Below, piece after piece: positions 3,632 through 39,124 of a stretch of DNA of 64,000 bases. The position numbers were made by a program, and so were the translations under genes. Source of the DNA: Sulfurimonadaceae bacterium (GTDB taxonomy: Bacteria > Campylobacterota > Campylobacteria > Campylobacterales > Sulfurimonadaceae). Each line of letters starts with the position of its first letter. Positions within the stretch are counted from its first letter, which is position 1. The stretch spans positions 108-64,107 of the forward strand of contig JADGEC010000003.1 in NCBI GenBank assembly GCA_016744575.1, in the 5' to 3' direction. A model generated the notes under the pieces. The model worked only from the letters and a program-made list of their open reading frames with translations, was not told the DNA's origin and made no database searches.

Positions 3632-3641
3632 CTCCGGCTCC

Positions 3642-6981: not shown

Positions 6982-6986
6982 GTTGA

Positions 6987-7630: not shown

Positions 7631-7991
7631 CGGACGACTCCTTATGTAAAATTCTCAAATATTGAGAGCCGTGATTATACCGAAAAAAGATCCGAATCGT
7701 ATGAATATTTATGTTTTTAGCTTATTTAAAGGAGAGATATGTGGTATTTTGAGCATCAGCTCATGTGCTCTGTCTTAACGTGAGGAGATCGTTATTAGAT
7801 CATCCAGTTTGCACATTTGCTTTTTTTTAGTCGCTTCAACATGGCGAGCTCAAGAGTACTTAGTCTTTCACGACTCTTTGTATCTTTTTGTCTTGTCATC
7901 GTCTTTCCTTTCATCTGATATGTCTCGTATTGATAAAGACTGATGAAAGTATAGGACAGCTTTATTACCTTCTCATCACAGAAGGCTTGTC

Positions 7992-8384
7992 TTAGAGATC
8001 TCGAATAGCTTTACACCACTGCTGCATCGCTTCATTGGCTGCCAGGTTTGGCGCTTCAAGAAAGGAGAGCACAAAACTATCTGGCATCTCTGCAACACCT
8101 ATGGCACGCGGACGAACAGCCATGACCATTGGGTCTTTGAGCTCTTTTCCAAAACAGAAGAGGACATTCTTAGCATTCAAAATATCTGCAGCGATCTCAC
8201 CGTCTTCAAGTGAAGCGGTATGACTATAGTGGTCAAAGATCCCAATATATGTCGAGACAGGATGTGCTTTTACATGTTCGACCAATGGTATGATGATACT
8301 ATCGACATCAGTATAAGTCGTCTCACTCTTTGCGATCTCGATCGTATGGATCGGGTATTTCTCTTTAAACAGTCTCTCTTGCAT
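7992..8384 (-). CDS. hypothetical protein (130 aa)
   Basis: Intact ORF, same orientation and 21-nt spacing from the NifX-like gene; no motif recognised. Confidence 0.5.
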   Translation of the reverse strand: MQERLFKEKYPIHTIEIAKSETTYTDVDSIIIPLVEHVKAHPVSTYIGIFDHYSHTASLEDGEIAADILNAKNVLFCFGKELKDPMVMAVRPRAIGVAEMPDSFVLSFLEAPNLAANEAMQQWCKAIRDL

Positions 8385-8405
8385 CAGTACTAACGCCTTT
8401 ATCTA

Positions 8406-8747
8406 TTAATGAAAGTTCTCTACATTGTCAGCTGTGATCTCTTTGAGGAGACCTTGCTGATACTTTGCAACGGCTTCTATAAGGGTAAGGCGTTCGTCAC
8501 CAGGATAAAAGAGTCGCATGCCCATACTGTGTACGATCTGAAGCGGTCTACCGCCGAGATGCTTCGTCAAAATAGTCGTGACACCTGCTTCTTTTAACTT
8601 TCCGATGATAGCTGGGCCTTGCTCCTCATTAGGGATGACTTTTATACTGTTGTCAGCTGGGTCATAGATACCAAACCATTTAGCCTTACCAAACACTGTC
8701 GTGATGGCGGCGTCTTCTTTACCTGTCTTTAATGGGGCTGCGTACAT
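8406..8747 (-). CDS. NifB/NifX-family (dinitrogenase FeMo-cofactor-binding fold) small protein
   Basis: 113 aa; pattern FGKAKWFGIYD...G(V)TTILTKHLGGRPL...GMRLF resembles stand-alone NifX/NafY-like domain proteins. Confidence 0.6.
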   Translation of the reverse strand: MYAAPLKTGKEDAAITTVFGKAKWFGIYDPADNSIKVIPNEEQGPAIIGKLKEAGVTTILTKHLGGRPLQIVHSMGMRLFYPGDERLTLIEAVAKYQQGLLKEITADNVENFH

Positions 8748-8920
8748 GTGGTACCTTTTTGTATTGTTTTTTTCATACTGATATTGGGATCAGCTTTTTA
8801 GGTGCTCAATATCTCTTTAGATGACTATGAGCAGAGGATCTACACCCTGTTTTCGGGTTTATGAGATGCTTTAGCTAGAAGACTTGCTTCAGAGATCTTT
8901 AAAGCGTTCTGTTTAAGTTA

Positions 8921-9450
8921 TGACATCAGAAGTGGTAGATCTATTGATGTTAAGCCTTCAGTGAAACAGTATCTCTTGTAAATAAATGTGTGTGACCTCA
9001 CGTCTGTAAGGAGGACAATATCATCGATGAATATTCCGGACTTTCAATCGGCGTAGTGTTTTATCACTGAACATCATAAGTGGTAGATCATTGATGTGAA
9101 GCCTCCAGCGGTGCTTCGCACATCGCTTCCGGTTTCGTTCGCCGAAACGATATCTCCCGTTCAGCAGACGTGAGTGACCTCACGTCTGTAGGGAGTAAAA
9201 TAGTATTGATGAGCATTCCAAACCTTCAGTCAGCGTAGTGTTTCATCACTGTCATTAGAAGCGGTAGGTCATTGACGTTAAGCCTTCGGCGGTCACTTCG
9301 TGACATCGCCTACGGTTTCGTTCGCCGAAACGCCAAGCAGTTGGCGTTTACTTTCAAACCGGTGAGCTATTGATGTTAAGCCGCGCAGCTCACTTCGTTC
9401 GGCAAGCTTGGTTTCGCAGCTAAAAACGTGCTCCCAGCTCGTTTTTTATA
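8921..9450. repeat. degenerate tandem array (about 3.5 units, spacing 148/181/98 bp) of a structured repeat with conserved hairpins
   Basis: Core GGTAGATCATTGATGTTAAGCC recurs at 8934, 9082, 9263 and 9361. GTTTCG-ttcgc-CGAAAC hairpin at 9132-9148 and 9315-9331. Perfect 10-bp-stem hairpin CAGACGTGAG-tgac-CTCACGTCTG at 9165-9188, with a decayed copy near 8990-9008. GCGTAGTGTTT(T/C)ATCACTG recurs at 9051-9069 and 9232-9250. Confidence 0.85.
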
Positions 9451-9456
9451 CGCTGC

Positions 9457-10638
9457 TCACATCCCAGGGATACGAGGGATCTTACCGAGTTTCGAGTTTC
9501 GGCAGTACCAGCCCCACCCTTTTTTCATAAAGTGTCCGATAAATGGCATCGGGATCATCAAGCCGCGTTTATCATCACGATATACGAATGCAGCACCGTC
9601 ACCGCTATCCATCACACAAAGGATGTTAAGATGGTCTTGATAACCCTTACGCTCACTCTCACCGTTCTCTTTAGCGACGATGTTGAATGCGACATTTCGT
9701 GCCATCACCTCAGCGACATGGCCCTGCTTTGCACGCCAGTCTGGTCCTTCCAAGGCTGCAGTATCACCGATAGCATAGACATTGTAGTCTTCTGATGGCT
9801 CTTCGGGCTGTGCTTCGGAGAAGTCATTGATCTTGACGTAACCCGACTCATCCAGAGGAAGGTCAGAGTTCTGAAGGACTGGGTGTCCATTTCCGGCAGG
9901 GATGAACATCGTGAAGTCACTCTCAAGCTTGCTGTCATCTGCAAAGATGATGCCATCAGCCTCAAACCCTTTGAACTTCTTACCGAACCGCTTATTGATG
10001 TTCAGTTTTGTAAAGAAGACATCCATCATCTTGAGCGCCTGTGGTCCCATACGTGCACCTGGTTTTTCCATCGGAGCAAAGAACGTCAACTCAAACTTAT
10101 CACGGATCCCTTTTTTCTTCAGCATGTTGTGCACATTGAAAAGCAGTTCAAATGCAGGACCGCCTCTCACTGAAGAGGTGTCTTTCGGATTACCGCCAAA
10201 GCCCATAGCGATCTTGCCACCGCCTTTTGCGATCAGCGCATCGAGTCTGTCTTTGATGGCCAAAGAGTCTTCCGGGACACCACAGATGGAGAGCGTGTTC
10301 TCAATACCCTTGTGTTTCATCTTACCAGAACCCATCGCGACTACCAGATAATCATAGTCTAAGGTCCCACTCTCTTTTAACTCGACCTTTTTCTCTTTTG
10401 AGGTGATCTGTGTCACTTCGTCTATGATGAGTTCAAAACCGTGTGCCTTTTGCAGGTCAGCCAGAGGGACACAGACATCCTCAAACTTACTTGAACCTGT
10501 CGGGACCCAGATCGACGTCGGATAGATGTAAAAATAGTCTCTGTTACTTACCAGTGTGACCTCTATCTTCTTTTTTCGTAAATAGATAGCTGCTTCCACG
10601 CCTGCAAATCCGCCACCCAAGACCAATACTTTTTTCAT
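9457..10638 (-). CDS. FAD-dependent pyridine-nucleotide-disulfide-family oxidoreductase, sulfide:quinone oxidoreductase-like
   Basis: MKKVLVLGGGFAGVEAA Rossmann/FAD motif, second dinucleotide-fold region, about 390 aa. Start moved to the second ATG (10638), which has a GGAGA RBS 5 nt upstream. SQR versus NDH-2-like cannot be settled by eye. Confidence 0.7.
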   Translation of the reverse strand: MKKVLVLGGGFAGVEAAIYLRKKKIEVTLVSNRDYFYIYPTSIWVPTGSSKFEDVCVPLADLQKAHGFELIIDEVTQITSKEKKVELKESGTLDYDYLVVAMGSGKMKHKGIENTLSICGVPEDSLAIKDRLDALIAKGGGKIAMGFGGNPKDTSSVRGGPAFELLFNVHNMLKKKGIRDKFELTFFAPMEKPGARMGPQALKMMDVFFTKLNINKRFGKKFKGFEADGIIFADDSKLESDFTMFIPAGNGHPVLQNSDLPLDESGYVKINDFSEAQPEEPSEDYNVYAIGDTAALEGPDWRAKQGHVAEVMARNVAFNIVAKENGESERKGYQDHLNILCVMDSGDGAAFVYRDDKRGLMIPMPFIGHFMKKGWGWYCRNSKLGKIPRIPGM

Positions 10639-10824
10639 CTCTATCTCCATTTATAAGGCTCTAGGACACTACACATCACTACGTGTCCGATCGTTTGGCT
10701 AATGATACATAATTTGACGAATTAAAGTCAAGTTTACAACAGTTTAACCGTCATTTTATCCACTTTTACCCACTCTTTGTTGATTCCACTTTATGTTATG
10801 ATATCACAAATATTCGAGGTGACT

Positions 10825-11718
10825 ATGAAGATAGCAGTGGCAGGTATCGGCGGTGTGGGCGGCTATATAGGAGCGAAGCTATGTACTTTGCAGCCTAAAC
10901 AGAAGATCACCTTTATTGCGAGGGGTGAACATGCTCAAGCTATCAGAGAGAATGGGCTGCAGATCATCGAAGATAACGCTTCTTTCACAGCTAAGCCGAC
11001 CCATATCTGTGAAGCAGACGAAGCAGAAGATGTCTATGACCTACTGCTAATGTGTGTTAAAAGCTATAGCATCCCCGCTATGATAGAGTCATTGCGAAAG
11101 AACATCGACAAGAACACCGTTATCATCCCTTTTTCCAATGGTGTAGACCATACCGAGACTATCAGTGGTATGGTTGATGCCCGGGTCATGAACGGCGCTG
11201 TCTACATACTTGCACATATCCAAAGTCCCGGTATCATCCGCAAAGAGGGCAAGATCTTTGCCGCCGTCTTTGGCGGTAAGGGTCTTCAGGATGAGACGAT
11301 CTATGTCGACTGGCTGCTTGGAGAGGCGAAGCTGAGGACAAAGACACCACCCGACATAGAGAGTGCACTCTGGAAGAAATACCTCTTTATCAGTGCTTTT
11401 GCCACCCTCACCTCCTATTATGATGAGAGTATACAGAGCGTGTATGATCAGCATACGATGGAGACGGTATCACTACTTCAGGAGATAGTCACTCTTGCAT
11501 GGAAAAAAGGCATCGACTTAAGTAGTGAGGTCGACAAAGCACTTGCTACAGCAGCTTCATTGCCTAAAGATGCCTCTACCTCTATGCATCTTGACTTTCA
11601 GCAGCATCGCAGTACTGAACTCGAGACTCTAAGTGGCTATATCGTTCGTGAAGCACAAAAGTATGCTCTTTCACTGCCGGTGATGAGCATGATGTATAAG
11701 ACCTTAAAGGAGAGGTAA
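10825..11718 (+). CDS. panE: 2-dehydropantoate 2-reductase (ketopantoate reductase, ApbA/PanE family)
   Basis: MKIAVAGIGGVGGYIGAKL NAD(P)-binding N-terminus; about 300 aa; internal ATG at 10825 preceded by GAGGTG is preferred over the track start at 10777. Confidence 0.78.
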   Translation: MKIAVAGIGGVGGYIGAKLCTLQPKQKITFIARGEHAQAIRENGLQIIEDNASFTAKPTHICEADEAEDVYDLLLMCVKSYSIPAMIESLRKNIDKNTVIIPFSNGVDHTETISGMVDARVMNGAVYILAHIQSPGIIRKEGKIFAAVFGGKGLQDETIYVDWLLGEAKLRTKTPPDIESALWKKYLFISAFATLTSYYDESIQSVYDQHTMETVSLLQEIVTLAWKKGIDLSSEVDKALATAASLPKDASTSMHLDFQQHRSTELETLSGYIVREAQKYALSLPVMSMMYKTLKER

Positions 11719-12248
11719 TGGCAAAAGAAGAGATAGCACTGCTTGGCGGCGGATGTTTTTGGTGTATTGAAGCGGTCTATGCACAGGTCAAGGGTGTCAA
11801 GTCAGCCATAAGCGGTTATGCAGGCGGTCTCGGAGCCAACCCGGACTATAGATCTGTCTGTTCTGGGACTACCGGTCATGCTGAAGTCGTCGAGATCACC
11901 TTTGATCCTAATGTCATCAGCTTTAGTGAGCTCCTCGATATCTTCTGGGTCATCCACGACCCGACCACACTGAACCAGCAAGGCGCTGACCGTGGGACAC
12001 AGTACCGTTCTGTCATCTACTACCATGATGCCCTCCAGCAAGAGAGCGCAGAGGCATCAATCGCAGAGCTGCAAAAAGAGCTTAGAGATACCATCGTCAC
12101 CGAACGTTCACCGGCACCGACGTTCTACCCAGCGGAAGTCTATCATCAAGACTACTATGCGTTAAACAGTTCACAAGGATATTGTCAGGCGGTGATCGCA
12201 CCGAAGATCCAGAAGTTTATGACAAAGTTTTCGGACAAGATGGCCTAA
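11718..12248 (+). CDS. msrA: peptide-methionine (S)-S-oxide reductase
   Basis: GGGCFWCIEAVY active-site motif, HAEVVEITFDP, 176 aa. Confidence 0.95.
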   Translation: MAKEEIALLGGGCFWCIEAVYAQVKGVKSAISGYAGGLGANPDYRSVCSGTTGHAEVVEITFDPNVISFSELLDIFWVIHDPTTLNQQGADRGTQYRSVIYYHDALQQESAEASIAELQKELRDTIVTERSPAPTFYPAEVYHQDYYALNSSQGYCQAVIAPKIQKFMTKFSDKMA

Positions 12249-12514
12249 AAAAGATCTCTTGCTATCTTAATGCCTCTACTCTTGTGATTGGCCCACGACC
12301 TTCTTGGCGTACTATCACGCTTCGACCCTGACGCAGCGGGCAAAGTCCGCTCTGCGTAGAAGATCAAACAGCTAGTCACTATCCCTTACTAGACATATCT
12401 TACTCAGGGGAGATGATGAGGGTGTAACAGATGATAAATGGATCGTAACACTATCTGGACATCAAGGGTCTTCGGTTTCTCTCTAAGATGGTAAAGTATA
12501 TAGAAAGGAAGGCC

Positions 12515-13069
12515 ATGCCTAAGACACTCCCAATAGCACAACTCGGATCCCCGGTCATACGTACCGTGGCTGGACCCGCCGGCGACCTTGGAACGAAAGA
12601 GATGCAGGAGTTCATAGATGACTTGATGGTGACGTGCAATGAAGCCAAGGGCATGGGGATATCCGCACCTCAGGTCTACCGCTCGGAGCGTATTATGATC
12701 ATGTCTTCGACACCTAATGAACGCTATCCTCATGCACCAGAGATGGAGCCGACTGTACTGATCGACCCCGAGATCTTATGGCAGTCTGAGCAGAGTGAGA
12801 AAGATTGGGAGGGCTGCCTGAGTCTTCCGGGGATCCGGGCAATGGTGCCGCGCGCAAAGGAGGTACGTGTCACGTATCGCACTCGAGACGGTGAACATAA
12901 AAAAGCAAGCTTCGAAGGTTTTCTGGCACGCCTTTTTCTACATGAGTACGATCACCTCAACGGCATAGTGTTCATCGACCGCGTTGATTCGACACTCGAT
13001 GTCGTGATGGAGCAGGAGTTTAAGCGTATCATCGCTTCAAACGATGAAAAGAGATGGGATCAAAAGTAG
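12515..13069 (+). CDS. def: peptide deformylase
   Basis: Three PDF motifs: GMGISAPQV, EGCLSLPG, HEYDHLNG. Start placed at the ATG preceded by AAGGAAGG. Confidence 0.93.
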   Translation: MPKTLPIAQLGSPVIRTVAGPAGDLGTKEMQEFIDDLMVTCNEAKGMGISAPQVYRSERIMIMSSTPNERYPHAPEMEPTVLIDPEILWQSEQSEKDWEGCLSLPGIRAMVPRAKEVRVTYRTRDGEHKKASFEGFLARLFLHEYDHLNGIVFIDRVDSTLDVVMEQEFKRIIASNDEKRWDQK

Positions 13070-14259
13070 ATACTAAAAAGGTTCATCCCCTCTTCATGTC
13101 GATACTCAAGTCTAAAGCCATGTTTCTCGATGATGTTCTTCGTAATGTAGATACCAAGACCCAGCCCTTTTGCACTATCTTCAAACTTACGGTTAAAGAC
13201 ATGTCCAAATAGCGCTTCATCGAGTACGTCACCTAAAGAAGCGATAGTGACCGATTCCCTGCCTATACTAACAACAGGTCTGGAAGCGCCATACTTTAAG
13301 GCATTGTCGATGAGGTTCTTCAGTGCGACAGACATCAACTCAAAATCTGCCTCGATCTCACTTTCATCTGCTATGGTGATCTCTATGGCATCTTTATCGA
13401 CCATCAGGATATCCAGTGCATTGTCCAAAATATCTACTGTACGAAATCGCTTTTTTTTCAGACGAAGCTCATTGGAAGTGACGCGTTCTATCTTGGCAAA
13501 CTCTCCAAGTAGATGCTCAAAACGATCAAATAACTTTCTAAGACGCTGTGCGTTCTTCTCATCATCGATGAGATCAGAGATCAGCTTGCCCTTGGCTATA
13601 GGTGTCTTAAGCTCATGCATGATATTTCTCAAAAAGAGGTTTCGTGACTCCTGAAGCTGCCTGATCGTCGAGATGGCGTTCTCAAACTCGTTAGAGACTT
13701 CAGCGATCTCATCTTTTCCACTCATACTCGTATGCACATCCAGACCTCCTCTCGAAAACTCTTTTATAGCGTGTTTGAGCTCTCGTAACGGCCAGATCCG
13801 TCGGATAACATATAAGAAGAAAGAGAGTACCGCCAGATCGATCAATAAAGCGAACAAGAGCAGCCGTTTGTCTTCGAGTCTCTCATCCATGTAACGAAAG
13901 TAATGTTTAATAGCTCGCCTTTTATCATCAAGGTGAAGATAGATCATACCCTCATAGGCATAGACTTTTATATCCTTATCACTTCCGAGCAGTCTACCTT
14001 TTTGAAAGTCTCCCGCCTCCTCTTTTCGTAACATCTCCATTTTCAAGATATCATGCAGGCGCTTCTTTGCCATCTCGTAAGGCACCCGCTGCACCCTGCT
14101 CATGTGCAGGAGCTGAGTGCTTTCATGTACGTTCTTAAAAGCCCTTTCTACTACATACTCCTGTTCATAACCATACTGAAGGTAAAAAAGTGTGTTGATG
14201 ACCCCCATCAGGAAGAGGAAAAAAAGCGAGATATAGAATATCAGCGAGTGTCTATTCAT
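13060..14259 (-). CDS. sensor histidine kinase (two TM segments, HAMP, HisKA, HATPase)
   Basis: H-box MHELKTPIA, N-box LKNLIDNALKY, G-box GLGLGIYITKNIIEKHG; 8-nt overlap with the upstream response regulator gene. Confidence 0.88.
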   Translation of the reverse strand: MNRHSLIFYISLFFLFLMGVINTLFYLQYGYEQEYVVERAFKNVHESTQLLHMSRVQRVPYEMAKKRLHDILKMEMLRKEEAGDFQKGRLLGSDKDIKVYAYEGMIYLHLDDKRRAIKHYFRYMDERLEDKRLLLFALLIDLAVLSFFLYVIRRIWPLRELKHAIKEFSRGGLDVHTSMSGKDEIAEVSNEFENAISTIRQLQESRNLFLRNIMHELKTPIAKGKLISDLIDDEKNAQRLRKLFDRFEHLLGEFAKIERVTSNELRLKKKRFRTVDILDNALDILMVDKDAIEITIADESEIEADFELMSVALKNLIDNALKYGASRPVVSIGRESVTIASLGDVLDEALFGHVFNRKFEDSAKGLGLGIYITKNIIEKHGFRLEYRHEEGMNLFSIYF

Positions 14260-18946: not shown

Positions 18947-19486
18947 ATGATCATCTGTGCCGGAAACAATGAGAACTTTGACTTTGCCCTGCCGACAGGT
19001 GTCGGCCTTGTCGAAACAGCGATGAACCTGACGAGACTATGCCTTTTTGATAAACCCGAATACATACTTTTTGTCGGTACTGCCGGAAGCTATGGGAGTC
19101 ATGCTATCTTTGATATCATCGAGTCCAAAACAGCGGCTAACATCGAACTCTCTTCTCTTCAGAAGAAGTCATACACCCCGCTTGACAACGTGATCTCTAC
19201 GCAAACTGAGGACAAACGTGATGTTATCATCAACTCCTCAAACTACATCTCTACTGATCTGGAATTGGCATCTGGATTTGAGCGATTTGGTGTCACACTT
19301 GAGAACATGGAGTTCTTTTCTGTCTTACGTGTGGCTCAGGAATTCGACATCCCCGCCGGTGGTGTCTTTTGTGTGACCAACCTTTGTGATGAAGATGCTC
19401 ATAAGGATTTCATGCAAAACCATGAAGAGGCCAAACTCAGACTTACTACCCACGTGAAACGCAGGATCAAGGAGTTGACCTCATGA
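18947..19486 (+). CDS. nucleoside phosphorylase-superfamily (PNP_UDP_1-like) protein
   Basis: 179 aa with FVGTAGSY and ENMEFFSV...CVTN segments reminiscent of MTAN/futalosine-hydrolase-type phosphorylase folds; specific function not assignable. Confidence 0.5.
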   Translation: MIICAGNNENFDFALPTGVGLVETAMNLTRLCLFDKPEYILFVGTAGSYGSHAIFDIIESKTAANIELSSLQKKSYTPLDNVISTQTEDKRDVIINSSNYISTDLELASGFERFGVTLENMEFFSVLRVAQEFDIPAGGVFCVTNLCDEDAHKDFMQNHEEAKLRLTTHVKRRIKELTS

Positions 19487-20553
19487 TACTACCTACTATC
19501 CTCGACTATACCAAAGAGCAGCTTGCCACACAGATCAAGCCAGCATTTCGTGCCAAACAGATCTACGGTTGGGTCTATCATCAATATGCCGAGAGCTATG
19601 ATACGATGCAGAACATCCCAAAAAGCCTTCGAGAAGAGTTACGTGGTAAATATATCATCAACCCTCTCAACACACTTCGTAAGGAAGAAGCTACTGATGG
19701 GACCATCAAGTACCTCTATGAACTACCTGATGGCAAGACCATCGAGACAGTCCTTTTACGTATGAAAGAGGAGAAGACAGATGAGACAGGTAAGATCACC
19801 CAAGAAGCCAAATATACTGTCTGTGTCTCTACTCAAGTCGGCTGTAAAGTCGGATGCTCTTTTTGTCTGACTGCCAAAGGTGGTTTTACTCGTGACCTTA
19901 CAGCGGGCGAGATCGTCGCCCAAGTGCTTGAAGTGAAGAAAGACAACGACCTTGCTGCACATCGTCGTATGAACATAGTCTACATGGGTATGGGTGAACC
20001 TCTAGATAATCTTGATAACCTGGCCAATGCCATCAAGATCATCAAGGATGAAGAGGGTCTCTGTATCTCAGGAAAGCGTCAGACCGTCTCTACGAGTGGT
20101 ATAAGCAGTAAGATAGATAAACTGGGCAAGATGGACCTCGGCGTCCATATCGCTATCTCACTGCATGCTGTGGATGATGAGCTTCGTACGGAGCTCATAC
20201 CGATGAACAAAGCCTATAACATCGCTTCGATCATTGATGCTGTCAAACGTTTTCCTATTGATGCCAGAAAACGAGTCATGTTCGAGTATCTGGTCATCCA
20301 AGACAAGAACGATGATATTGCTTCGGCGAAAAAGCTGGTCAAACTTCTGCATGGCATAAAAGCAAAAGTCAACCTGATCTATTTCAATCCTTATCCGGGA
20401 ACAGAGTATGCTCGCCCTACTCCGCAAGATATGGTCAAGTTCCAGGAGTATCTCATCACACATGGTCTCCTGTGTACCATTCGAGACTCAAAAGGAATCG
20501 ATATCAGTGCTGCATGTGGACAACTCAAAGAGAAGACAGAGGAAGAGCGATGA
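19483..20553 (+). CDS. rlmN: 23S rRNA/tRNA adenine-C2 methyltransferase, radical SAM
   Basis: CxxxCxxC cluster CKVGCSFCLT, MGMGEPLDN, C-terminal GIDISAACGQL; 356 aa. Confidence 0.93.
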   Translation: MILPTILDYTKEQLATQIKPAFRAKQIYGWVYHQYAESYDTMQNIPKSLREELRGKYIINPLNTLRKEEATDGTIKYLYELPDGKTIETVLLRMKEEKTDETGKITQEAKYTVCVSTQVGCKVGCSFCLTAKGGFTRDLTAGEIVAQVLEVKKDNDLAAHRRMNIVYMGMGEPLDNLDNLANAIKIIKDEEGLCISGKRQTVSTSGISSKIDKLGKMDLGVHIAISLHAVDDELRTELIPMNKAYNIASIIDAVKRFPIDARKRVMFEYLVIQDKNDDIASAKKLVKLLHGIKAKVNLIYFNPYPGTEYARPTPQDMVKFQEYLITHGLLCTIRDSKGIDISAACGQLKEKTEEER

Positions 20554-20645
20554 TGATAGAGTACTTTCAGATAGGTTTTTTAGTGATCGTAGTCACGGTA
20601 GGTGTCGGTGGCTTTATCTGGGCTATTAAGAACGATAAGTTCTGA
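20550..20645 (+). CDS. candidate 31-aa single-pass membrane peptide (not in the ORF track)
   Basis: ATG overlaps the rlmN stop (ATGA). Peptide is MMIEYFQIGFLVIVVTVGVGGFIWAIKNDKF. The tail FIWAIKNDKF weakly resembles the conserved WxxKxGQ(F/Y)DD segment of CcoS/FixS. Confidence 0.3.
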   Translation: MMIEYFQIGFLVIVVTVGVGGFIWAIKNDKF

Positions 20646-21059
20646 TTTGGCCCAATAAGCACTTATAACACTCTCCACCGCTATCTATTGCACATCTCTC
20701 TTTCTCACTTATAGAAATCTAATTTAATTATAAATCACATAAATAACCCATTTACTACTTATATAGATCTCTGCTCTTGATAAATGGAGCCACTACTGTC
20801 GCGAGGTAAGATGTCTTGTAGGAGTTTAAAAAGGTATCTATGATTGTTTTTGAAGAGAGGTAAACAGCCAACACACCAGGGAGGCCGTTTATGTCTGCAA
20901 TGGTATCACACAATGCTTATAGCAAACTAATACTCATAAAGCAGTGAATAGGCACGACTTCAACGCAAGGGATCTGCTCTGTAGATAGCATGATAATACG
21001 TACTATATCGGTGTGTTCTTTCACTTTCAGCAGGCTTCATATCTTCATAGGAGTATGTA

Positions 21060-21362
21060 GGTTTCACACCGTGCTCTAAAATGTGAATAAGAATAATCAT
21101 ATTTTCAAAATACCACTAAGATTCAGACTTTTTTTATCTAAATAATTTCTTAATTCACAAAGTGTGATTATTTTAGAAAATCCCTATTTTAGGGACTTTA
21201 AGTGATATTTTTATCTTAATTCACATACTCGTTCTAATTCTTATACTCCATATAAGTAGCTTTATTCACATATATTTAAAATGAAGATAAAAATGCTTAT
21301 CATTACCGACTTGTAACCACCAAGTATCACCTTTGTAATCAACTATTCTTATACTTTTCACA
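21060..21362. promoter_or_regulatory. cluster of DnaA-box-like 9-mers (TTATTCACA/TAATTCACA) in the AT-rich region upstream of the OlsF-like gene
   Basis: Perfect TTWTNCACA matches at 21082-21090 (reverse complement) and 21262-21270. One-mismatch TAATTCACA at 21151-21159 and 21217-21225, the latter two within the direct repeat CTTAATTCACA. CTTTTCACA at 21354-21362; GGTTTCACA at 21060-21068. Confidence 0.35.
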
Positions 21363-21405: not shown

Positions 21406-23124
21406 ATGATAAGCGTAGAAGGTGCTTTAAGACACCAGTATCCAAGACTTTTCCATTATCCGACCTATATCTCAAAGCCTACCATCAGTTTTTTCAAGCT
21501 GCTTTTTCATGAAGATAGTATTAATGATTTTCTTACAAAAAATAGTACCACTGGTCTAAGCTTTATTGATGCAGTACTTGATCATCTCAACATCTCCTAC
21601 AAAGTCGATAATAAGCAGATACAGAACATCCCATCACTTGGCAAAGTCATCATCGTCTCAAACCATCCTCTTGGCGCACTCGATGCGCTGGCCTTGATAA
21701 AACTGGTCACTTCTATCCGTCAAGATAAAAAAGTCAAGATAGTCGCAAATGACATGCTCTCTCAGTTCACACAGCTCAAAGAGTATCTTATCCCTATTGA
21801 CAACATAAGTGGGAGACTTTCTAAAAAAAGTCTACAGAGTATTGAAGAGGCATTGAACGATGATGAGGCTGTCCTCTTCTTTCCATCAGGGGAAGTATCT
21901 CGAGCCTATTTCAATGGCATAAAAGATGGTAAGTGGAAAAGTGGTTTTGTAAAGTTTTCTAAAAGGACACAGAGCCCCATTCTGCCTGTTTACATCAAAG
22001 CAAAGAACTCTACGCTCTTTTATGGTGTATCGTGGCTCTACAAGCCTTTTGGGACACTCCTGTTGGGTCACGAGATGATACGTGCACGTAACTCGGTATT
22101 TGAGTTCAATGTGGGAGAACTGATAGCCTCACATACTATCTCGGATATGCGGCTTGATCACAAGCAGCACGCAAGACTTTTTCGTAAGCATCTCTATCGC
22201 ATCGTGCATAATAAACGTGGTATCTATCAGACAGAACAGTGCATCGCACATCCAGAGTCCAGACAGGAGATAAAACAGGAGTTAATAAACAGTGAGCGTA
22301 TCGGTATGACCTCTGATAACAAGCATATCTACCTAGTCGAATATGAGAACGCACCAACACTGCTTAGTGAGATAGGAAGACTTCGTGAATACTCTTTTCG
22401 CAAAGTCGGTGAAGGTAGTGGACAACATCGAGACCTCGACAGATATGATAAGTTCTATCAACACCTACTCCTTTGGGATGATGATGCACTCGAAGTCGTT
22501 GGAGCTTATCGCATCGGTGAATGTGACTGGGTACTCTCCCGACTTGGAAAAAAAGGACTCTATATGAACGAGCTCTGCAAAATCGATGATCAAGCAGACG
22601 AGTACCTAAAGCAAGCTATAGAACTGGGTAGAAGTTTTGTCCAACCAAAATACTGGGGAACACGTGCACTGGACTATCTATGGCAAGGTATAGGAGCTTA
22701 CCTCAGTCACAATCCTCACATTAAGTATATGTATGGTCCCGTCAGTATTAGCGCGATGTATCCACGACATGCTCAAGAAGCACTCGTCTATTTCTATAAA
22801 AACTACTTTGGTGCTAAAGAACCCTCTATGCATGCTCGAACTCCTTACCGTCTCTCTCACTCCACAGCTCAGGAACTCGAAGTAAGGTTTAACGGAGATG
22901 ACTATCTCGCTGACTTTAGAGAACTTAAGAGATATCTCTGTGCCTTTAACGTGACTGTACCGACTCTCTTTAAACAGTACAGTGAGTTATGTGAAGAGGG
23001 AGGAGTACAGTTTATGGACTTTGGTATTGACACGGAGTTCAAGGACTGTATTGATGGTTATATCCTAGTCGAGATAAATAAGATAAAAGCAGTAAAACGA
23101 AAAAGGTATATAGATGCCGTTTAA
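21406..23124 (+). CDS. bifunctional acyltransferase, OlsF-like (N-terminal PlsC-type O-acyltransferase fused to a C-terminal OlsB/GNAT-type N-acyltransferase); candidate aminolipid (ornithine-lipid-type) synthase
   Basis: N-terminal domain has VSNHPLGALDAL (HX4-5D-type acyltransferase motif), FFPSGEVSR and PILPVYI. The C-terminal 250 aa look like the hemolysin/OlsB-type GNAT fold (YRIGE..., ELGRSFV). 572 aa and this domain order match OlsF. AAAGGAG RBS. Confidence 0.7.
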   Translation: MISVEGALRHQYPRLFHYPTYISKPTISFFKLLFHEDSINDFLTKNSTTGLSFIDAVLDHLNISYKVDNKQIQNIPSLGKVIIVSNHPLGALDALALIKLVTSIRQDKKVKIVANDMLSQFTQLKEYLIPIDNISGRLSKKSLQSIEEALNDDEAVLFFPSGEVSRAYFNGIKDGKWKSGFVKFSKRTQSPILPVYIKAKNSTLFYGVSWLYKPFGTLLLGHEMIRARNSVFEFNVGELIASHTISDMRLDHKQHARLFRKHLYRIVHNKRGIYQTEQCIAHPESRQEIKQELINSERIGMTSDNKHIYLVEYENAPTLLSEIGRLREYSFRKVGEGSGQHRDLDRYDKFYQHLLLWDDDALEVVGAYRIGECDWVLSRLGKKGLYMNELCKIDDQADEYLKQAIELGRSFVQPKYWGTRALDYLWQGIGAYLSHNPHIKYMYGPVSISAMYPRHAQEALVYFYKNYFGAKEPSMHARTPYRLSHSTAQELEVRFNGDDYLADFRELKRYLCAFNVTVPTLFKQYSELCEEGGVQFMDFGIDTEFKDCIDGYILVEINKIKAVKRKRYIDAV

Positions 23125-23449
23125 ACTTTAAGGGCACTTCTAATAACCCCGTGTGTCATCAGCGTTTCATACGACTTTGTGATCAAGGCAGGTCAGATGA
23201 GAACTATCTTGTCTTACCTTACTACCGTAACTGATTACGATGGCAAGGGACTAACGATACCTCGAATGAAAAATATGCTAAATGCATATTTTCATCGAGT
23301 AAGCTCTTATCGATGTATGAAACACCTTCGGGAGGTCTATCAAGTTCCTACTGTAAATATCAATTAGATAAGTCTTACTAACACTTCGTCTAAACAGTCA
23401 CTCTCTTCCACACCGTCTCATCCCAATAATCAGACTAAAAAGAGTGCGA

Positions 23450-23465
23450 TGTTTCACGTGAAACA
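23450..23465. other. parS site 1 (ParB/Spo0J-binding centromere palindrome TGTTTCACGTGAAACA)
   Basis: Perfect 16-bp palindrome identical to the consensus parS; non-coding. Confidence 0.85.
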
Positions 23466-23486
23466 AGTATGATCACCTCTTATACC

Positions 23487-23502
23487 TGTTTCACGTGAGA
23501 GC
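23487..23502. other. degenerate parS-like site (TGTTTCACGTGAGAGC, 13/16)
   Basis: Left half-site perfect, right half diverged; 21 bp from site 1. Confidence 0.5.
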
Positions 23503-24079
23503 ATAAGTCATAATTGCCATAGTATCCGTTTATAAAAAGTCAGTTCAAGCACTTATACCCGTTGTAGCTTATCTCTAATACTCATATATAAATACATTGA
23601 ACAGCAATATTTTAGTCAAATACATGTTTGATCTTTATCTGTTTTAGCAACTGACATAGATACTTATCAAAGCTTACGACATCTATTCAAAATACCATAA
23701 GTAGGGAGTTGAAGTGCCTATATTACTACAATATCATCCTGACATCTGTGTGTAAAGTATTCTTTATTCTAGGCATATATAAGAGTGTGATGTTGGTGAT
23801 CATTAGTAAACAAAGCTGTTGTCTTTTATATTACCAAGACCTCTTTCAATTTGACTATCACGTCTTTAGTAAGAGCATCTACAATTGGTTGATCTATAAA
23901 AAATTAGCTATAAGTCATACTGTCTATACACGGAACAACTGTTAATTAGTAAAATAGGTCAGCTACTAAATAAAGTAGTTAGCCGGTATGTGCGCCACGA
24001 CCTATAAACGAAACAAGACTATAGAAACAGTTATATATCTCAACAAAACTCACTAAATGGTAAGATTTCGAATCATAGA

Positions 24080-24095
24080 TGTTTCACGTGAAACA
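24080..24095. other. parS site 2 (core of a 26-bp perfect palindrome, 24075-24100)
   Basis: ATAGATGTTTCACGTGAAACATCTAT is a perfect palindrome; non-coding. Confidence 0.85.
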
Positions 24096-24487
24096 TCTAT
24101 TGTTAGCACATATAATACTCTATGATTAAGTATAAAAGCTCTATCAGATACGTCGACTTTCTATTATCTGTTCTCTCCTAACAAGTCATAACTTCAAGAC
24201 TAATACAATCTATACACCATAAAGTGTTACTCTCTATTGAATATAATATCACTTCAAGTACAGTAAGTAGGGAGTTCAAGAGAGCTTATCAATAGAAGGG
24301 CGCACTGCATTAAAGTCTCTTAATAGAGGAGAACACATACATTCATACTGGAAAACTAACACCCTTGTGATGTTCTACATTCAAATGCTTTATAACCCTA
24401 TCTACTCTTATGACTTTACTGTTAACGAACAGAGATCTTTAGCTCTACTTAACACCTCTATATTAACTCAATATAAGAGTAGTCAAA

Positions 24488-25408
24488 CTATACATCATCA
24501 AATCGCATTGCACTAAAAGCCTCTTTAATGAAGTCTTCTTTTGAGTGGATACTGTAACGATTCTCTTTATACTCAAAGTCTAATTGTGAGGCATGTAGTA
24601 AAAGCCGTGTTGCCCCACTAAGTTGAAGGCGTTCATCTGCTGTGATTTCTTTATCAAGAAACCGAAGTACATCTTTTTCATTTTGTCCATATATAGGATC
24701 ACCAACAATTGGATGTTTCACGTGAAACAAATGAACTCTTATTTGATGCTGTCTACCTGTAAAAGGTCTAGCCTTTACTAATGTCATATCTTTATCTGGA
24801 AAATACTGCAGTGGTTCTATCTCAGTTTTTGAATGTTTACCTTCACTATTGACTTTGACGACCATCCGAACCAATGCACTTTTATCTTCTCTTCTAAGCA
24901 GGGGTTCTTCTATAGTTGTTTCACGTGAAACATACCCATGCACTAATGCAAGATAAGACTTCTGCATCGCTCTTGCTTCGAACATCATCTTAAGGTCTCG
25001 CTCACTTTTCTTGTCACGAGAAGCCAATACCAGACCACTTGTCTCCTGGTCAATACGGTGAGTGATGTTAGCATCACTTCCGAAATAAAAACGTATCTCA
25101 TCGATCAATGAATAGGGTGTCTGACGACTTTGTGGATGGACTAAGACCCCACTTGGCTTATCAAACAAAGCAAACACAGGTGTGACAAATAGAGGTCTCA
25201 AACCTCTGCTTTTGGGCTCAAAACAGACAAACTCAAACTCACCGCTTACATAACCTGAGGCATTCACCATAGGAATCCCATCAACAAATACTCGTCCTCT
25301 AGATATCTGACTCTGAGCCTGTTTTTGTGTATAACCAAGTTCTCTTATTAGAAAGAGAAAGGCCTTTGTCTTATGAGGTGAAAATAGCTTTTTTAGTACA
25401 AAAGGCAT
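24488..25408 (-). CDS. RluA-family 23S rRNA/tRNA pseudouridine synthase (RluD/RluC-like, with an S4-like N-terminus)
   Basis: Catalytic motif HRIDQETSGLVL and GRQHQIRVHL...HPIVGDPIYG. Start set at 25408 (AAGGGAG RBS) rather than the track start at 25447. Confidence 0.9.
   Translation of the reverse strand: MPFVLKKLFSPHKTKAFLFLIRELGYTQKQAQSQISRGRVFVDGIPMVNASGYVSGEFEFVCFEPKSRGLRPLFVTPVFALFDKPSGVLVHPQSRQTPYSLIDEIRFYFGSDANITHRIDQETSGLVLASRDKKSERDLKMMFEARAMQKSYLALVHGYVSRETTIEEPLLRREDKSALVRMVVKVNSEGKHSKTEIEPLQYFPDKDMTLVKARPFTGRQHQIRVHLFHVKHPIVGDPIYGQNEKDVLRFLDKEITADERLQLSGATRLLLHASQLDFEYKENRYSIHSKEDFIKEAFSAMRFDDV
24714..24729. other. parS site 3, inside the pseudouridine synthase CDS
   Basis: Perfect TGTTTCACGTGAAACA; encodes LFHVKH on the minus strand. 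Confidence 0.85.
24917..24932. other. parS site 4, inside the pseudouridine synthase CDS (a different codon phase from site 3)
   Basis: Perfect TGTTTCACGTGAAACA; encodes VSRET on the minus strand. Confidence 0.85.
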
Positions 25409-35410: not shown

Positions 35411-37006
35411 ATGCTGATGATGGATGTAGCAACAGATAAAAGCAGTCAATCACCACTATCACTGCTTCCAGGAAAAGATGAAGGTGACCCTAAAGCGTTT
35501 GACAAACTACTTAAAGGGCTTACCCTCTCTTTGGGCAAAGGAAAGTCTATCTCTACCGAGGGCCTGACACTACTACTAAGCAAAGAGCAGGCTCTCCAAG
35601 AGACAAGCATGCTCCCGAGTGCTGTTCCAAAGCTCGAGCAGGGCAAAGAGAAGGCTGTCGAGAAGTCACTTCTAAATCTGCTGCACGGAGAGGATACGGA
35701 CGAAGAGAGCGTTAGCAGTAGTAGTGACCTGCAAGAGATAAAGACGCTTAATCCAAAGATCACCTCTAACATGCCTCCACGACAGCTGAATGAACTCATT
35801 CAAGATGCCAAGGCCTACCTCAAGACCGAGATCAGCCGTATCTCTGATGTCAAAGAGATGCCAAAGACCCTTAAAGGACTCGTAGAACTTGCCCAAAAGG
35901 TCGGTGTCGATCTCACTAAAGTCACACTGGAGAGCGTTCAGGTAAAAAATACAGGTACGATGGCAGTACCTACTACAGAGAAAAGTAAAGGTGAGGCACA
36001 ACAGGTAGTCGTCGAGAAGAGGGCAGGTATAAAGAACATACCAACTGCCCAACTAATACAGCAACAGACACAGACTCCTGAAGCAAAAAGCACTAAACAT
36101 GCTGAACCATTACAGACACTGCTGCAGAAATCAACAGAACCACTCAAAGCAGCGACACCAACAGAACAACCTGCACGATCTGTACCACTTGGTCAGACGG
36201 TCATCTCTGATACAAAAGCAGAGCAGTCTCAAGCACAGACTTCAGCACAACTCAAGAGTGCTGTCAATACCGTCGCAGTAGCCTCTACAGATAAAAGAGC
36301 AGTGACCAAGAGTAAAGAGGAGCCTGTACAGAGACAAAGTAGATCTGTCACAGCCCAGAGTGCCGTAGACAAAAACGCAGCACTACCTCAGGCTTCTATC
36401 GCTCTCGATGATGGCGTGAGTGCAGAGGTTATGGCAAAACAGTCCAAACAGCCTCTTTTTTCCTCCGCTCTAAACACACTTGTCCATGGAGAGAAAGAGT
36501 CCTCTGAGATGAGCTTGGAAAACAGTGCTAAAACAGTAGATACAACACCTAAAAGCAGTACATCCATGGCTTCGATCACAAATTCCGATCAGCTTGAGAA
36601 CAAGATGAACGAAGCCAAACAGACGATGCGTCATTTTGCCGGTGAGATAAAAGAGGCGATCCAAAACTACAAATCACCATTCACAAGGATCAAGATACAG
36701 TTGAACCCAGCCAAACTGGGAGAAGTCGATGTCACAATGGTACAACGGGGCAATAACCTCCATATCAACATCAGCTCCAACACTACAGCTATCACGACCC
36801 TGGCACAAAACGCTACGGAACTCAAGACCCAGCTCTCACAAAACGGCATGGGCAGCACCACGATGAACTTTAGTAACAGCTCCAACTCAGAACAACAGCA
36901 GCAACAGCAGCGCCAGCATATTGCTGAGCTTTATGAGCAGTTTGAGAACAGTGAAGAGTTCGAGTTGATGGAAAGTCTCGAACTTATCATCCCGAAATAC
37001 GTATAG
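35411..37006 (+). CDS. fliK: flagellar hook-length control protein FliK
   Basis: Low-complexity Ser/Thr/Gln/Lys-rich body; C-terminal Flg_hook domain (IKIQLNPAKLGEVDVTMVQRGNNLHINI...); position upstream of flgD. Confidence 0.8.
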   Translation: MLMMDVATDKSSQSPLSLLPGKDEGDPKAFDKLLKGLTLSLGKGKSISTEGLTLLLSKEQALQETSMLPSAVPKLEQGKEKAVEKSLLNLLHGEDTDEESVSSSSDLQEIKTLNPKITSNMPPRQLNELIQDAKAYLKTEISRISDVKEMPKTLKGLVELAQKVGVDLTKVTLESVQVKNTGTMAVPTTEKSKGEAQQVVVEKRAGIKNIPTAQLIQQQTQTPEAKSTKHAEPLQTLLQKSTEPLKAATPTEQPARSVPLGQTVISDTKAEQSQAQTSAQLKSAVNTVAVASTDKRAVTKSKEEPVQRQSRSVTAQSAVDKNAALPQASIALDDGVSAEVMAKQSKQPLFSSALNTLVHGEKESSEMSLENSAKTVDTTPKSSTSMASITNSDQLENKMNEAKQTMRHFAGEIKEAIQNYKSPFTRIKIQLNPAKLGEVDVTMVQRGNNLHINISSNTTAITTLAQNATELKTQLSQNGMGSTTMNFSNSSNSEQQQQQQRQHIAELYEQFENSEEFELMESLELIIPKYV

Positions 37007-37018
37007 AAAGGACAGATC

Positions 37019-37690
37019 ATGGCATCAAGTATCACATCTCCAACAACAACGGCGACTACCGAAACGACCTCGACGACTACAAGCGAAAACCCTAATGGTA
37101 TCCTTGGTAAGGATGATTTCATGAAACTGCTACTTATACAGTTGCAGTATCAAGACCCCACCGACCCCATGGATAGTTCGGAGATCCTTACTCAGACATC
37201 ACAGCTTGCACAACTCGAATCAGCTGATAACACCAATACTGCTCTGGAGAAGCTCTCAGAGTCTTTGCTCACCAGTATGCAGTTCTCTACCATCGCGGCT
37301 ATCGGTAAGATGGCTGATCTTGGAAGCGACTCTATCACACTTGATGCTGAAGGGGGCAACAGCTCTTTTGATATCTTCTTCCCAACAGACATCGCCAGTG
37401 GGTCAGTGGAGATCCGTGACGGTGATGGTTCACTTATACAGTCCATCTCCGTTCCTGAAAGCTCAGCTGGAGCACAGACCTTCAACTGGGATGGGACCAC
37501 ATCCGGCGGTGACGCGGCAGCAGAGGGAATCTATCACGTCAGTGCGACCTATGGTGCAAATGATGGCAGCACAGGTACAGTGAAACTCGGCTCCTACCCA
37601 ATAGAGTCCATCCGTTTTGAAGAAGGGACTCCTCTGGCAAAAGTAGGCTCTTCGTATGTGTCATTTGACGATATCTATGAGGTCTACTAG
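37019..37690 (+). CDS. flgD: flagellar hook assembly/capping protein FlgD
   Basis: ILGKDDFMKLLLIQLQYQDPTDPMD motif and a C-terminal FlgD Ig-like region. Confidence 0.92.
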   Translation: MASSITSPTTTATTETTSTTTSENPNGILGKDDFMKLLLIQLQYQDPTDPMDSSEILTQTSQLAQLESADNTNTALEKLSESLLTSMQFSTIAAIGKMADLGSDSITLDAEGGNSSFDIFFPTDIASGSVEIRDGDGSLIQSISVPESSAGAQTFNWDGTTSGGDAAAEGIYHVSATYGANDGSTGTVKLGSYPIESIRFEEGTPLAKVGSSYVSFDDIYEVY

Positions 37691-37692
37691 TC

Positions 37693-38952
37693 ATGAACCA
37701 AGCATTCTATACAGGCATAGTAGGTATGCAGGCACACCAGCACAGTATCGATGTCGTCGCTGACAATCTGGCCAATGTGAACACAGTGGGTTTTCGCTCC
37801 AGTCAGGCAGAGTTCGCCTCTATCTTCGAAGAGGTCCTAAACAGCTCCTCATCGGGATCTACGACTAATGACAGTATAGGGGAAGGCACACGTATCCAGG
37901 CAACTGTCACAAATATGCAACAGGGTTCTCTACTACTTGCAGACCAGAACACAGACCTTGCTATTGAAGGGGATGGATGGTTCGGTATCAACGGTAATGG
38001 ACAGGACCTATATACTCGTGCAGGAGGATTTACCTTTGACGGTGATCGAAACCTTGTGACCGGTGATGGGTTCTATGTACTGGGCACAAAGGGAGACAAC
38101 TTCACCGATGGTATCTTGACTGAACAACTTGGCCAGGTCGCTATAGCCGATGTAGGATCCCAAGAGGCTCTTATCCTTCCTGATACCCTTAGTTTTCCTG
38201 TCCAGCCTTCTACACTAGCGACATTTTCCGGAAACCTGGGTACCGAGGAGATATTACGATCGGTCAGTGCCGTGGTCATCTCCGCAAACAATGAACATAA
38301 CCGCCTACGACTGGACTTTACTCAGACTGTCCCGCAACCTACGACAGGTACAGCCTGGAATATTGTCGGCACCACGACTAGTAATGATGGAGAGACAGTC
38401 TACGACACCCAGACCGGCTCTGCCATATTTGGTGAGACTGGAGAATTGATAAGTTTTACAATACCTGCAGTCGACAATGATGGTACCTCTGTCGCTGTGG
38501 ACCTGGGCAGCGGATTTACCGGTGTCATCGCCAATGTCAGCGAGAGCGCACCAGCGCTCACCTCTGAAGCCGATGGCTTTGAGGGGGGAGACCTGACCGG
38601 TTACCGCATCAATGAGAACGCCGATATCATCGCCGCTTTCAGTAACGGACGTAGCAGTGCTGTCGGCAAGATCGCACTTTACCATTTTCAAAACGACCAG
38701 GGGCTTGACCGCATCAACGGCAGTCGTTTTGAAGAGAGTGCCAACAGCGGCAAACCGATCTTCTATCAGGATACCGCAGGTAATAATATCTTAGGCGCAA
38801 ACATACACAGTGGAAGACTTGAAGGCTCAAATTCAAGTATGGAGCAAGGCTTGACAGAGCTCATCATCTTGCAGCGCTCCTTTGATGCCAACTCAAAAAG
38901 TGTCACGACAGGAGATGAGCTTATCCAAAAAGCACTCAATATGGATGCATAA
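37693..38952 (+). CDS. FlgE-family hook protein paralogue (short, 419 aa)
   Basis: Flagellar rod/hook N-terminal motif (FYTGIVGMQAHQHSIDVVADNLANVNTVGF) and C-terminal LEGSNS...TELIILQRSFDANSK; directly coupled to flgD (2-nt gap). Confidence 0.85.
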   Translation: MNQAFYTGIVGMQAHQHSIDVVADNLANVNTVGFRSSQAEFASIFEEVLNSSSSGSTTNDSIGEGTRIQATVTNMQQGSLLLADQNTDLAIEGDGWFGINGNGQDLYTRAGGFTFDGDRNLVTGDGFYVLGTKGDNFTDGILTEQLGQVAIADVGSQEALILPDTLSFPVQPSTLATFSGNLGTEEILRSVSAVVISANNEHNRLRLDFTQTVPQPTTGTAWNIVGTTTSNDGETVYDTQTGSAIFGETGELISFTIPAVDNDGTSVAVDLGSGFTGVIANVSESAPALTSEADGFEGGDLTGYRINENADIIAAFSNGRSSAVGKIALYHFQNDQGLDRINGSRFEESANSGKPIFYQDTAGNNILGANIHSGRLEGSNSSMEQGLTELIILQRSFDANSKSVTTGDELIQKALNMDA

Positions 38953-39077
38953 GCTTCTATCTGGACACTATGACTAACAAGCACGATACTTTCTCTACGG
39001 AAGTGATGCTTTGAAAGACCGTAAGGCTTTTGTAAAAAAGTGACCTTGCAGTAAATACAATATTTAAAGTGAGATTT

Positions 39078-39094
39078 TGGAACGCTCTTTGCTT
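39078..39094 (+). promoter_or_regulatory. sigma-54 (RpoN) promoter upstream of flgE: TGGAACGCTCTTTGCTT
   Basis: Near-perfect TGGAAC-N5-TTGCTT. It ends 4 nt before the ATG at 39098, which argues the real flgE start is the ATG at 39125. Confidence 0.75.
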
Positions 39095-39124
39095 TAAATG
39101 TCTACTAACGTAAAAGGATTTAAA

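Follow-up and report, generated by a model that had tools for sequence, protein, structure and literature searches.

A probable chromosomal centromere of four perfect parS palindromes in and beside an RluA-family pseudouridine synthase gene of Sulfurimonadaceae

A 64-kb stretch of DNA from an uncultured Sulfurimonadaceae bacterium (contig JADGEC010000003.1, hereafter the window) was found to carry four perfect copies of a 16-bp palindrome within 1.5 kb, two in a spacer without open reading frames (ORFs) and two embedded in rluA, the gene for an RluA-family pseudouridine synthase. These palindromes are very probably chromosomal parS, that is, loading sites at which ParB would assemble the partition complex. 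The conserved chromosomal parS has the consensus TGTTNCACGTGAAACA, and Hyphomonas uses exactly the form seen here, TGTTTCACGTGAAACA, at two sites (PMC7022226). All four palindromes fit this 16-bp inverted repeat at 16 of 16 positions and a fifth copy fits it at 13. The identification as canonical parS and as a chromosomal centromere had been put forward in an earlier note drawn from the bare sequence; it was upheld by the full match, the low copy number, the tight clustering and the selection on the DNA over coding, each of them reinforced by comparison with more than 80 related loci.

Matches to TGTTTCACGTGAAACA were searched for over the whole 64-kb window at up to three mismatches, with 100 dinucleotide-preserving shuffles as a control. 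The copies found and the features that hold them are:

23450..23465, no strand: parS1, perfect 16-bp palindrome in the non-coding spacer, exact match
23487..23502, no strand: degenerate parS, 13/16, in effect one intact half-site
24080..24095, no strand: parS2, perfect palindrome centred in the 26-bp palindrome 24075-24100
24714..24729, no strand: parS3 (site A), within rluA codons L227-H232, peptide LFHVKH
24917..24932, no strand: parS4 (site B), within rluA codons Y159-T164, peptide VSRET, in the other codon phase
24488..25408, minus strand: rluA, RluA-family pseudouridine synthase of 306 amino acids, Pfam PF00849 (PseudoU_synth_2), holding parS3 and parS4
23125..24487, no strand: spacer of 1363 bp without an ORF, separating the 3' ends of the olsF-like gene and rluA, which are convergent, and holding parS1, parS2 and the degenerate site
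21406..23124, plus strand: olsF-like bifunctional acyltransferase/GNAT gene flanking the spacer, Pfam PF19576, PF01553 and PF13444

No sixth match was present anywhere else in the window at this threshold. The shuffles gave a mean of 0.31 matches and five were reached in 0 out of 100, so that chance is excluded for the cluster. Start-to-start distances were 37, 593, 634 and 203 bp for all five copies and 630, 634 and 203 bp between the perfect ones. Repeat analysis indicated that the likeness between copies stops roughly 3 nt outside the palindrome and that the flanks are unrelated beyond roughly 22 nt, with parS2 at the centre of a perfect 26-bp palindrome. The near-equal spacing of 630 and 634 bp does not derive from a recognisable duplication, since global alignment of the two inter-site segments of approximately 615 bp gave z = 0.48 against shuffles; a tandem duplication of about 630 bp was rejected on this account. 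The two intragenic copies are read in different codon phases of rluA, one as HLFHVKHP and the other as GYVSRETT. On each of these points, namely the four palindromes and their positions, the 13/16 copy, the spacings, the unrelated flanks, the 26-bp palindrome and the two codon phases, the earlier note was confirmed. The lone half-site that it had also recorded, CACGTGAAAC at 19451-19460 inside a pnp-like gene, is present but indistinguishable from chance, as GTTTCAC heptamers outside the cluster number 5 against 8.3 expected for the whole window; no alignment of it was obtained in relatives and it was rejected as a relic parS.

Conservation of site A and selection on its DNA

An alignment-driven scan of species-representative genomes was utilized in order to evaluate conservation of the sites, and returned 80 loci with the conserved synteny nrdA-purB-rluA-(olsF)-rlmN-pnp-hisF. 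All related loci were collected around rluA, with a coverage of ±10 kb per genome and 1.27 Mb in total. RluA homologues of 61-91% identity belong to Sulfurimonas, Sulfuricurvum and other Sulfurimonadaceae or Campylobacterota metagenome-assembled genomes. A parS with at most one mismatch was found on the exact codons of parS3 in 80 out of 82 rluA-bearing loci from different Sulfurimonadaceae species. The forms of site A over the 84 rluA copies in the 80 scan loci, four of which carry two copies, are:

exact TGTTTCACGTGAAACA: 54 of 84 rluA copies
TGTTTCATGTGAAACA: 16 of 84 rluA copies
TGTTCCACGTGAAACA, the B. subtilis/H. pylori form: 11 of 84 rluA copies
TGTTTCACGTGGAACA: 1 of 84 rluA copies
site A lost: 2 of 84 rluA copies

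The two common variants are a change of T to C at position 5 and of C to T at position 8, with the rest of the 16-mer unchanged, and the position-5 variant coincides with the N of the published consensus TGTTNCACGTGAAACA. In the clade with S. gotlandica and CS5, site A has a change of the central CG to TG. The same central variant (TGTTTCATGTGAAACA or its complement) was observed in both parS sites in 11 out of 11 two-site loci of one Sulfurimonas clade (L011, L013, L018, L025, L026, L036, L037, L039, L047, L054 and L083), which suggests a clade-specific tolerated or preferred form and not decay.

At lower identity, the peptide FHVKH, or its counterparts FHMKH and FHVEH encoded by known parS variants, was restricted to the nearest clusters of 40-60% identity, the named members of which are Hydrogenimonas sp. 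and Campylobacter spp. A Hydrogenimonas-like contig (L090) with an RluA identity of 51% has an exact parS at the site A codons. It also has a second exact parS (L090:9621-9636) inside a pnp-family gene, intragenic and in the same conserved gene block. At the site A codons of Campylobacter sp. 19-13652 (L089:11469-11484, AP024713.1) the sequence is TGTTTCATATGAAACA, with two mismatches and fully palindromic, as if the centromere sequence had changed symmetrically in a Campylobacter lineage. This copy lies approximately 77.8 kb from the record start, and purB-rluA and rlmN-pnp-hisF are still linked there. The comparison shows site A as an ancient, syntenic element held at six rluA codons across at least three Campylobacterales families.

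The constraint on these codons was investigated further employing a codon alignment of 84 rluA sequences, in which the 140 codon columns with a conserved amino acid were ranked by synonymous entropy. The five lowest entropies belonged to K231, V230, H232, H226 and L227, all within codons 226-232. K231 was AAA in 82 of 82 sequences and V230 was GTG in 82 of 83, while H229 was CAC in 67 of 84, every other conserved His column favouring CAT. At the flanking V225, P233, I234 and V235 all synonymous codons are in use. As the silent sites around it are randomised yet its own codons are frozen, the 16-mer is kept by selection on the DNA.

The encoded residues point the same way. Among 50%-identity representatives of the wider RluA family the commonest peptide at site A is L-A-H-I-G-H, as opposed to FHVKH here, and the only Sulfurimonadaceae locus in which site A is lost but other sites are kept (L005:10661-10700) reads HLFHIGHP. 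This would fit with parS imposing the V-K residues on RluA. Two further proteins, P0029 and P0058, also come from lineages lacking site A in which site B or a downstream site is kept, and they too read HLFHIGHP, close to the residues typical of the family. The alignments show selection on site A DNA that overrides both codon preference and the preferred residues of the protein. Selection on the DNA on top of coding, as the earlier note had proposed, was in fact evident regardless of coding context: in the synonymous entropies, in the two codon phases, in the intergenic copies and in the residues that revert.

Turnover of sites and linkage to the origin in relatives

Site B, in contrast to site A, was restricted to nine loci, all of the window's own clade, where it lies 203 bp upstream of site A, and at its position other lineages have unrelated residues in a variable loop. 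Companion parS sites were located 229-951 bp (28 sites) and 2.5-4.4 kb (17 sites) downstream of site A, the latter lying just past hisF in the loci checked. Most genomes retain one to three parS in the zone, nearby sites turn over between lineages and the array of the window has the most sites seen among the loci. In four Sulfuricurvum loci (L030, L042, L057 and L066) a tandem second rluA was observed (copies at approximately 10661 and 11600), each copy with its own parS at the same codons; the duplication of rluA has doubled the centromere sites in these genomes.

Throughout the 1.27 Mb of related loci, 134 out of 135 matches with at most one mismatch fell between -203 and +4350 bp of site A, and the single match outside this interval was one of the tandem rluA copies. 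The motif is therefore not evenly spread, a possibility that the earlier note had raised against its own reading. Copies are few and clustered, both in these loci and in the window at up to three mismatches, and the high, genome-wide copy number of a dispersed repeat or uptake sequence was seen in neither.

The best genome match to the window, a sister species of 86% identity (L002), has the same arrangement up to its contig end. Its spacer is 60-70% identical to that of the window, with the parS sites as perfectly conserved islands within it. parS1 is conserved, as are the 16-mer of parS2 and its ATG..CAT flanks, but the full 26-bp extension is not. The degenerate copy at 23487 is not conserved in L002 and is probably a decaying or accessory half-site. 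The L002 contig stops inside a fourth parS copy (L002:9015-9030), where the repeated 16-mers and their flanks probably break short-read assemblies.

The gene order ruvC-dnaA-dnaN-gyrB is the conserved context of oriC in Epsilonproteobacteria, with DnaA-box clusters in the ruvC-dnaA and dnaA-dnaN intervals (PMC5043019). RuvC was found at most 10 kb from rluA in 40 loci. Arrangements with a known position of site A relative to this context are:

Sulfuricurvum L060: rluA-olsF-ruvC-dnaA-dnaN-gyrB; site A to dnaA start 3.06 kb
Sulfurimonas L086: gyrB-dnaN-dnaA / ruvC-...-nrdA-purB-rluA; 8.6 kb from site A, no other parS within ±10 kb of dnaA
Sulfurimonas L087: arrangement as in L086; 9.9 kb from site A, no other parS within ±10 kb of dnaA
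Sulfurimonas sp. CS5, complete genome: record end 147 bp upstream of ruvC; site A 10.6 kb from record end
strain HSL3-7, complete genome: record end 82 bp upstream of ruvC; site A 19.6 kb from record end

From its record end, HSL3-7 has the order ruvC-thyX-...-HD-...-typA-...-nrdB-cnh-pcm-...-nrdA-purB-rluA-olsF. Read from right to left the window follows this order, with thyX at 42890-44254, the HD-domain gene at 41281-42375, typA, nrdB and on to rluA. Between the HD-domain gene and typA, at 35411-41218, fliK, flgD and a pair of flgE-like genes form a flagellar hook block; this block is an insertion into the origin-flanking synteny, since HSL3-7 has only two small genes at that interval (67 amino acids, and a CSD protein of 72 amino acids). 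The sign of the GC skew in the window is that of HSL3-7 and of other loci with a known origin side. As the skew sign matches and neither ruvC, dnaA nor a skew switch lies in the window, the origin should, judging from synteny and skew, be situated on the right side at a distance of at least 39 kb from the cluster. This distance is compatible with the usual definition of an ori domain (PMC7022226). The proposal that the window is origin-proximal has indirect support: relatives have the rluA parS 3-20 kb from ruvC-dnaA (3.06 kb, 8.6-10.6 kb and 19.6 kb in the genomes above) and the gene order is shared, whereas the window itself does not reach the origin.

Proposed partition complex assembly and competing explanations

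In the proposed mechanism, ParB dimers would load on parS and build the partition complex, which ParA would then segregate. The cognate ParB would be encoded elsewhere in the genome. From nucleation at the four sites ParB may spread across the spacer and into the convergent ends of the genes, and the resulting complex would mark the origin region for ParA-driven segregation and possibly for SMC loading. The lineage of the window appears to have enlarged the array through gain of site B in rluA and of a 1.36-kb spacer with two more sites, which would give a stronger or more redundant nucleation zone.

Some parS sites of B. subtilis lie in coding sequence, the classic one inside spo0J. In total B. 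subtilis has 10 parS sites, 8 of which are in the ori domain, with the consensus TGTTNCACGTGAAACA (PMC7022226). The parS of Spo0J/ParB in B. subtilis are thus comparable to those of the window in that the same 16-bp palindrome is used in multiple but low copy, the B. subtilis sites being origin-linked (PMC7022226). In contrast to B. subtilis, the window packs four perfect copies into 1.5 kb with no par gene nearby, and its intragenic host is a pseudouridine synthase gene in which the position of the site is conserved across at least three Campylobacterales families. In P. aeruginosa, parS1-4 are four high-affinity sites near oriC of which one suffices (PMC4368675), and half-sites are also bound (PMC10419367). 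A cluster of four sites is common to P. aeruginosa and the window; the P. aeruginosa sites differ in having the consensus TGTTCCACGTGGAACA, in having been experimentally tested and in lying next to oriC, compared to at least 39 kb from the origin for the window cluster.

Closest by phylum is H. pylori, the ParB of which (HpSpo0J/HpParB) has been assayed on TGTTCCACGTGAAACA (PMC11229316; PMC6393308), a sequence that differs by one base from the window site and is the variant found at site A in 11 related loci. Work on the H. pylori system has been of a structural and biochemical nature. Caulobacter crescentus has a tight parS cluster near parB (PMC7022226). In both Hyphomonas neptunium and Caulobacter the sites lie beside parAB and the system is essential, in contrast to the window with no parAB nearby. 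No literature was found, within the library searched, on rluA-embedded parS, on Sulfurimonadaceae or Campylobacter centromeres or on a link between parS and a pseudouridine synthase.

Several observations weigh against the identification of the cluster as a chromosomal centromere. Among roughly 48 window ORFs no ParA or ParB domain was found with Pfam and no GERRxRA motif was found in any of the six frames, as the earlier note's statement that no parA or parB lies in the window had anticipated; there were none in the fetched loci either. The window does not contain ruvC or dnaA, and past thyX chemotaxis, c-di-GMP and phosphate genes continue to position 64000. The GC skew is negative on the plus strand over the whole window with no inflection. 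In addition, the check on dispersal of the motif covered ±10 kb per genome plus the 64-kb window, in loci collected around rluA.

Three other explanations of the palindromes were considered. They could be operators of another dimeric DNA-binding regulator, or form an RNA hairpin in the rluA mRNA, the parS match being coincidental. Two sites are indeed transcribed within rluA, where the palindrome could fold as a short RNA hairpin, and no ParB gene was seen in the window. The same 16-mer is however also found where transcription is absent or different, namely downstream of rluA, in front of hisF, within pnp and in the spacer, and it occurs in two rluA codon phases, with a 16/16 match to pan-bacterial parS, and the variants of relatives at position 5, which is the N of TGTTNCACGTGAAACA, and at position 8 keep the remaining 16-mer. 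To our knowledge no other regulator has a parS-like 16-bp site, and we regard this explanation as very unlikely. A dispersed repeat, such as an uptake-type sequence or the end of a mobile element, or a recent local duplication would account for four identical copies in a small region and for the L002 contig end inside a copy, suggestive of a repeat-caused break. As there is no further copy in the other 62 kb of the window at up to three mismatches, the flanks are unrelated, the neighbours are housekeeping genes syntenic across the family and no transposase or integrase domain was detected among the window ORFs scanned, the probability of such an origin is close to nil.

The palindromes could also be DnaA-binding elements of an origin-like or DnaA-titrating region, with the AT-rich spacer as the unwinding region. 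DnaA boxes of the class are defined by the core TTCAC at positions 4-8, those of S. denitrificans being degenerate over positions 1-3 (PMC5043019). Each half-site TGTTTCACG contains this epsilonproteobacterial core, a genuine cluster of DnaA boxes is found at a distance of 2.2 kb and the spacer has a GC content of only about 35%. Against this, the whole 16-bp palindrome is under selection including positions outside of the DnaA core, and the true boxes of Sulfurimonadaceae read ATTCACA and not GTTTCACG. Origins of relatives flank dnaA (PMC5043019), while the window has no GC-skew switch, its skew being negative throughout, and no DnaA, DnaN, GyrB or RuvC domain was found among the window ORFs scanned against Pfam. 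A role as DnaA-binding elements is less probable still than that as operators or an RNA hairpin, though not as remote as a dispersed repeat.

Taken as chromosomal parS, the cluster is a marker of the chromosome segregation centre for this uncultured Sulfurimonadaceae lineage, and it links the contig with the gene block that flanks the origin, an aid in orienting and closing metagenome-assembled genomes. The locus is furthermore a clean natural case of overlapping constraints, in which a protein-binding site fixes synonymous positions and forces atypical residues, and in the window lineage a second site has been written into a variable loop of the same RluA protein. The understanding of ParABS systems is unchanged, as this is an ordinary kind of element and a very clear example of it. 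Its interest is modest and rests on the frozen site embedded in coding sequence, the lineage-specific enlargement of the array and the adjoining DnaA-box/hairpin element described below.

Neighbouring DnaA-box element, spacer and genes

The DnaA boxes of S. denitrificans have the consensus HHATTCACA (PMC5043019). In the window, ATTCACA occurs 5 times against 13 expected, and 4 of the 5 copies fall within 190 bp (21082-21270). The features of this element are:

21082..21270, no strand: DnaA-box cluster, four perfect T[TA]ATTCACA and near-boxes around the hairpin CCCTATTTTAGGG (21182-21194)
21082-21090, 21151-21159, 21217-21225 and 21262-21270: DnaA boxes, four consensus boxes
20862..20890, minus strand: second hairpin, 8-bp covarying stem and 13-nt loop UCCCUGGUGUGUU, with a -10-like TAnnnT before it and a T-run after it

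The box cluster sits in the 853-bp gap between rlmN and olsF, and a homologous cluster adjoins rluA or olsF in most related loci. In Sulfurimonas it comes directly after rluA with the second parS at its edge (in L086 roughly 35 bp before the first box), and in Sulfuricurvum it lies between olsF and ruvC, additional to the clusters flanking dnaA. Common parts of the element are a small hairpin CCCTAnnnnTAGGG, an inverted pair ATTCACA-N12/13-TGTGAAT that is found in most lineages and is degenerate in the window, and the second hairpin 150-330 bp further on.

This second hairpin was present once per locus and in the same orientation in approximately 70 loci. Compensatory changes were observed in 8 out of 8 pairs, and 96.9% of cells pair compared to 13-52% in slid controls. 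Across 68 distinct sequences the loop UCCCUGGUGUGUU hardly varies, and the nine bases at its centre are identical. G-U wobbles fit the orientation of rluA, RNAalifold gives the same stem, and an invariant TAnnnT lies upstream of the stem, at approximately 13 nt in the window. No Rfam match was found for the hairpin, nor did RNAalifold find a consensus structure in the conserved block upstream of it. The element resembles a cluster of DnaA boxes to which a small structured RNA or an attenuator is joined.

DnaA-box clusters outside oriC are known as the DBCs of B. subtilis and as datA and DARS in E. coli. Like these, the element is intergenic and gathers consensus DnaA boxes close to the origin but not within it; unlike them, it is coupled with a covarying hairpin of invariant loop and, in Sulfurimonas, interleaved with parS. 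The parS zone and this element might be the two halves of a conserved module beside the origin, through which segregation and initiation control are coupled at one compact locus outside oriC, although we consider this rather unlikely. Such a module would combine ParB loading with DnaA binding or titration, and possibly with DnaA-controlled transcription of the hairpin RNA.

The spacer that holds parS1 and parS2 has a GC content of about 35% compared to about 45% elsewhere, and the same interval spans 17-690 bp in relatives as opposed to 1363 bp in the window. In tblastx and blastn searches against all loci it was homologous only to the spacer of the sister species L002, and a pseudogene was rejected on that basis. 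It was likewise rejected as an RNA gene (no Rfam match at the gathering threshold or at E <= 1, no tRNA) and as regulatory DNA (no terminator-like site, and fewer promoter-like sites than in shuffles). A short motif occurs twice within it:

23701..23710, plus strand: TAGGGAGTT(N)AAG, copy 1
24267..24276, plus strand: TAGGGAGTT(N)AAG, copy 2

The copies follow parS1 and parS2 on the right-hand side at a distance of 188-252 bp, and both are conserved islands in L002.

The olsF-like gene is syntenic in the clade of the window and in Sulfuricurvum, and is missing between rluA and rlmN in most Sulfurimonas loci. The extent of rluA, 306 amino acids, was taken from the gene call on L001, an identical 14.4-kb ENA metagenome contig. 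Further housekeeping neighbours are hisF, a PNP-family gene, rlmN, purB, nrdA, nrdB and typA, beyond which the flagellar hook block, thyX and signalling and phosphate-uptake genes are located. No tRNA and no Rfam family were found in the window. A hydrophobic ORF of 31 amino acids at 20550-20645, called as a gene on L001, overlaps the stop codon of rlmN and is possibly a small membrane protein; an ORF of 34 amino acids is present at the matching place in Sulfurimonas L086.

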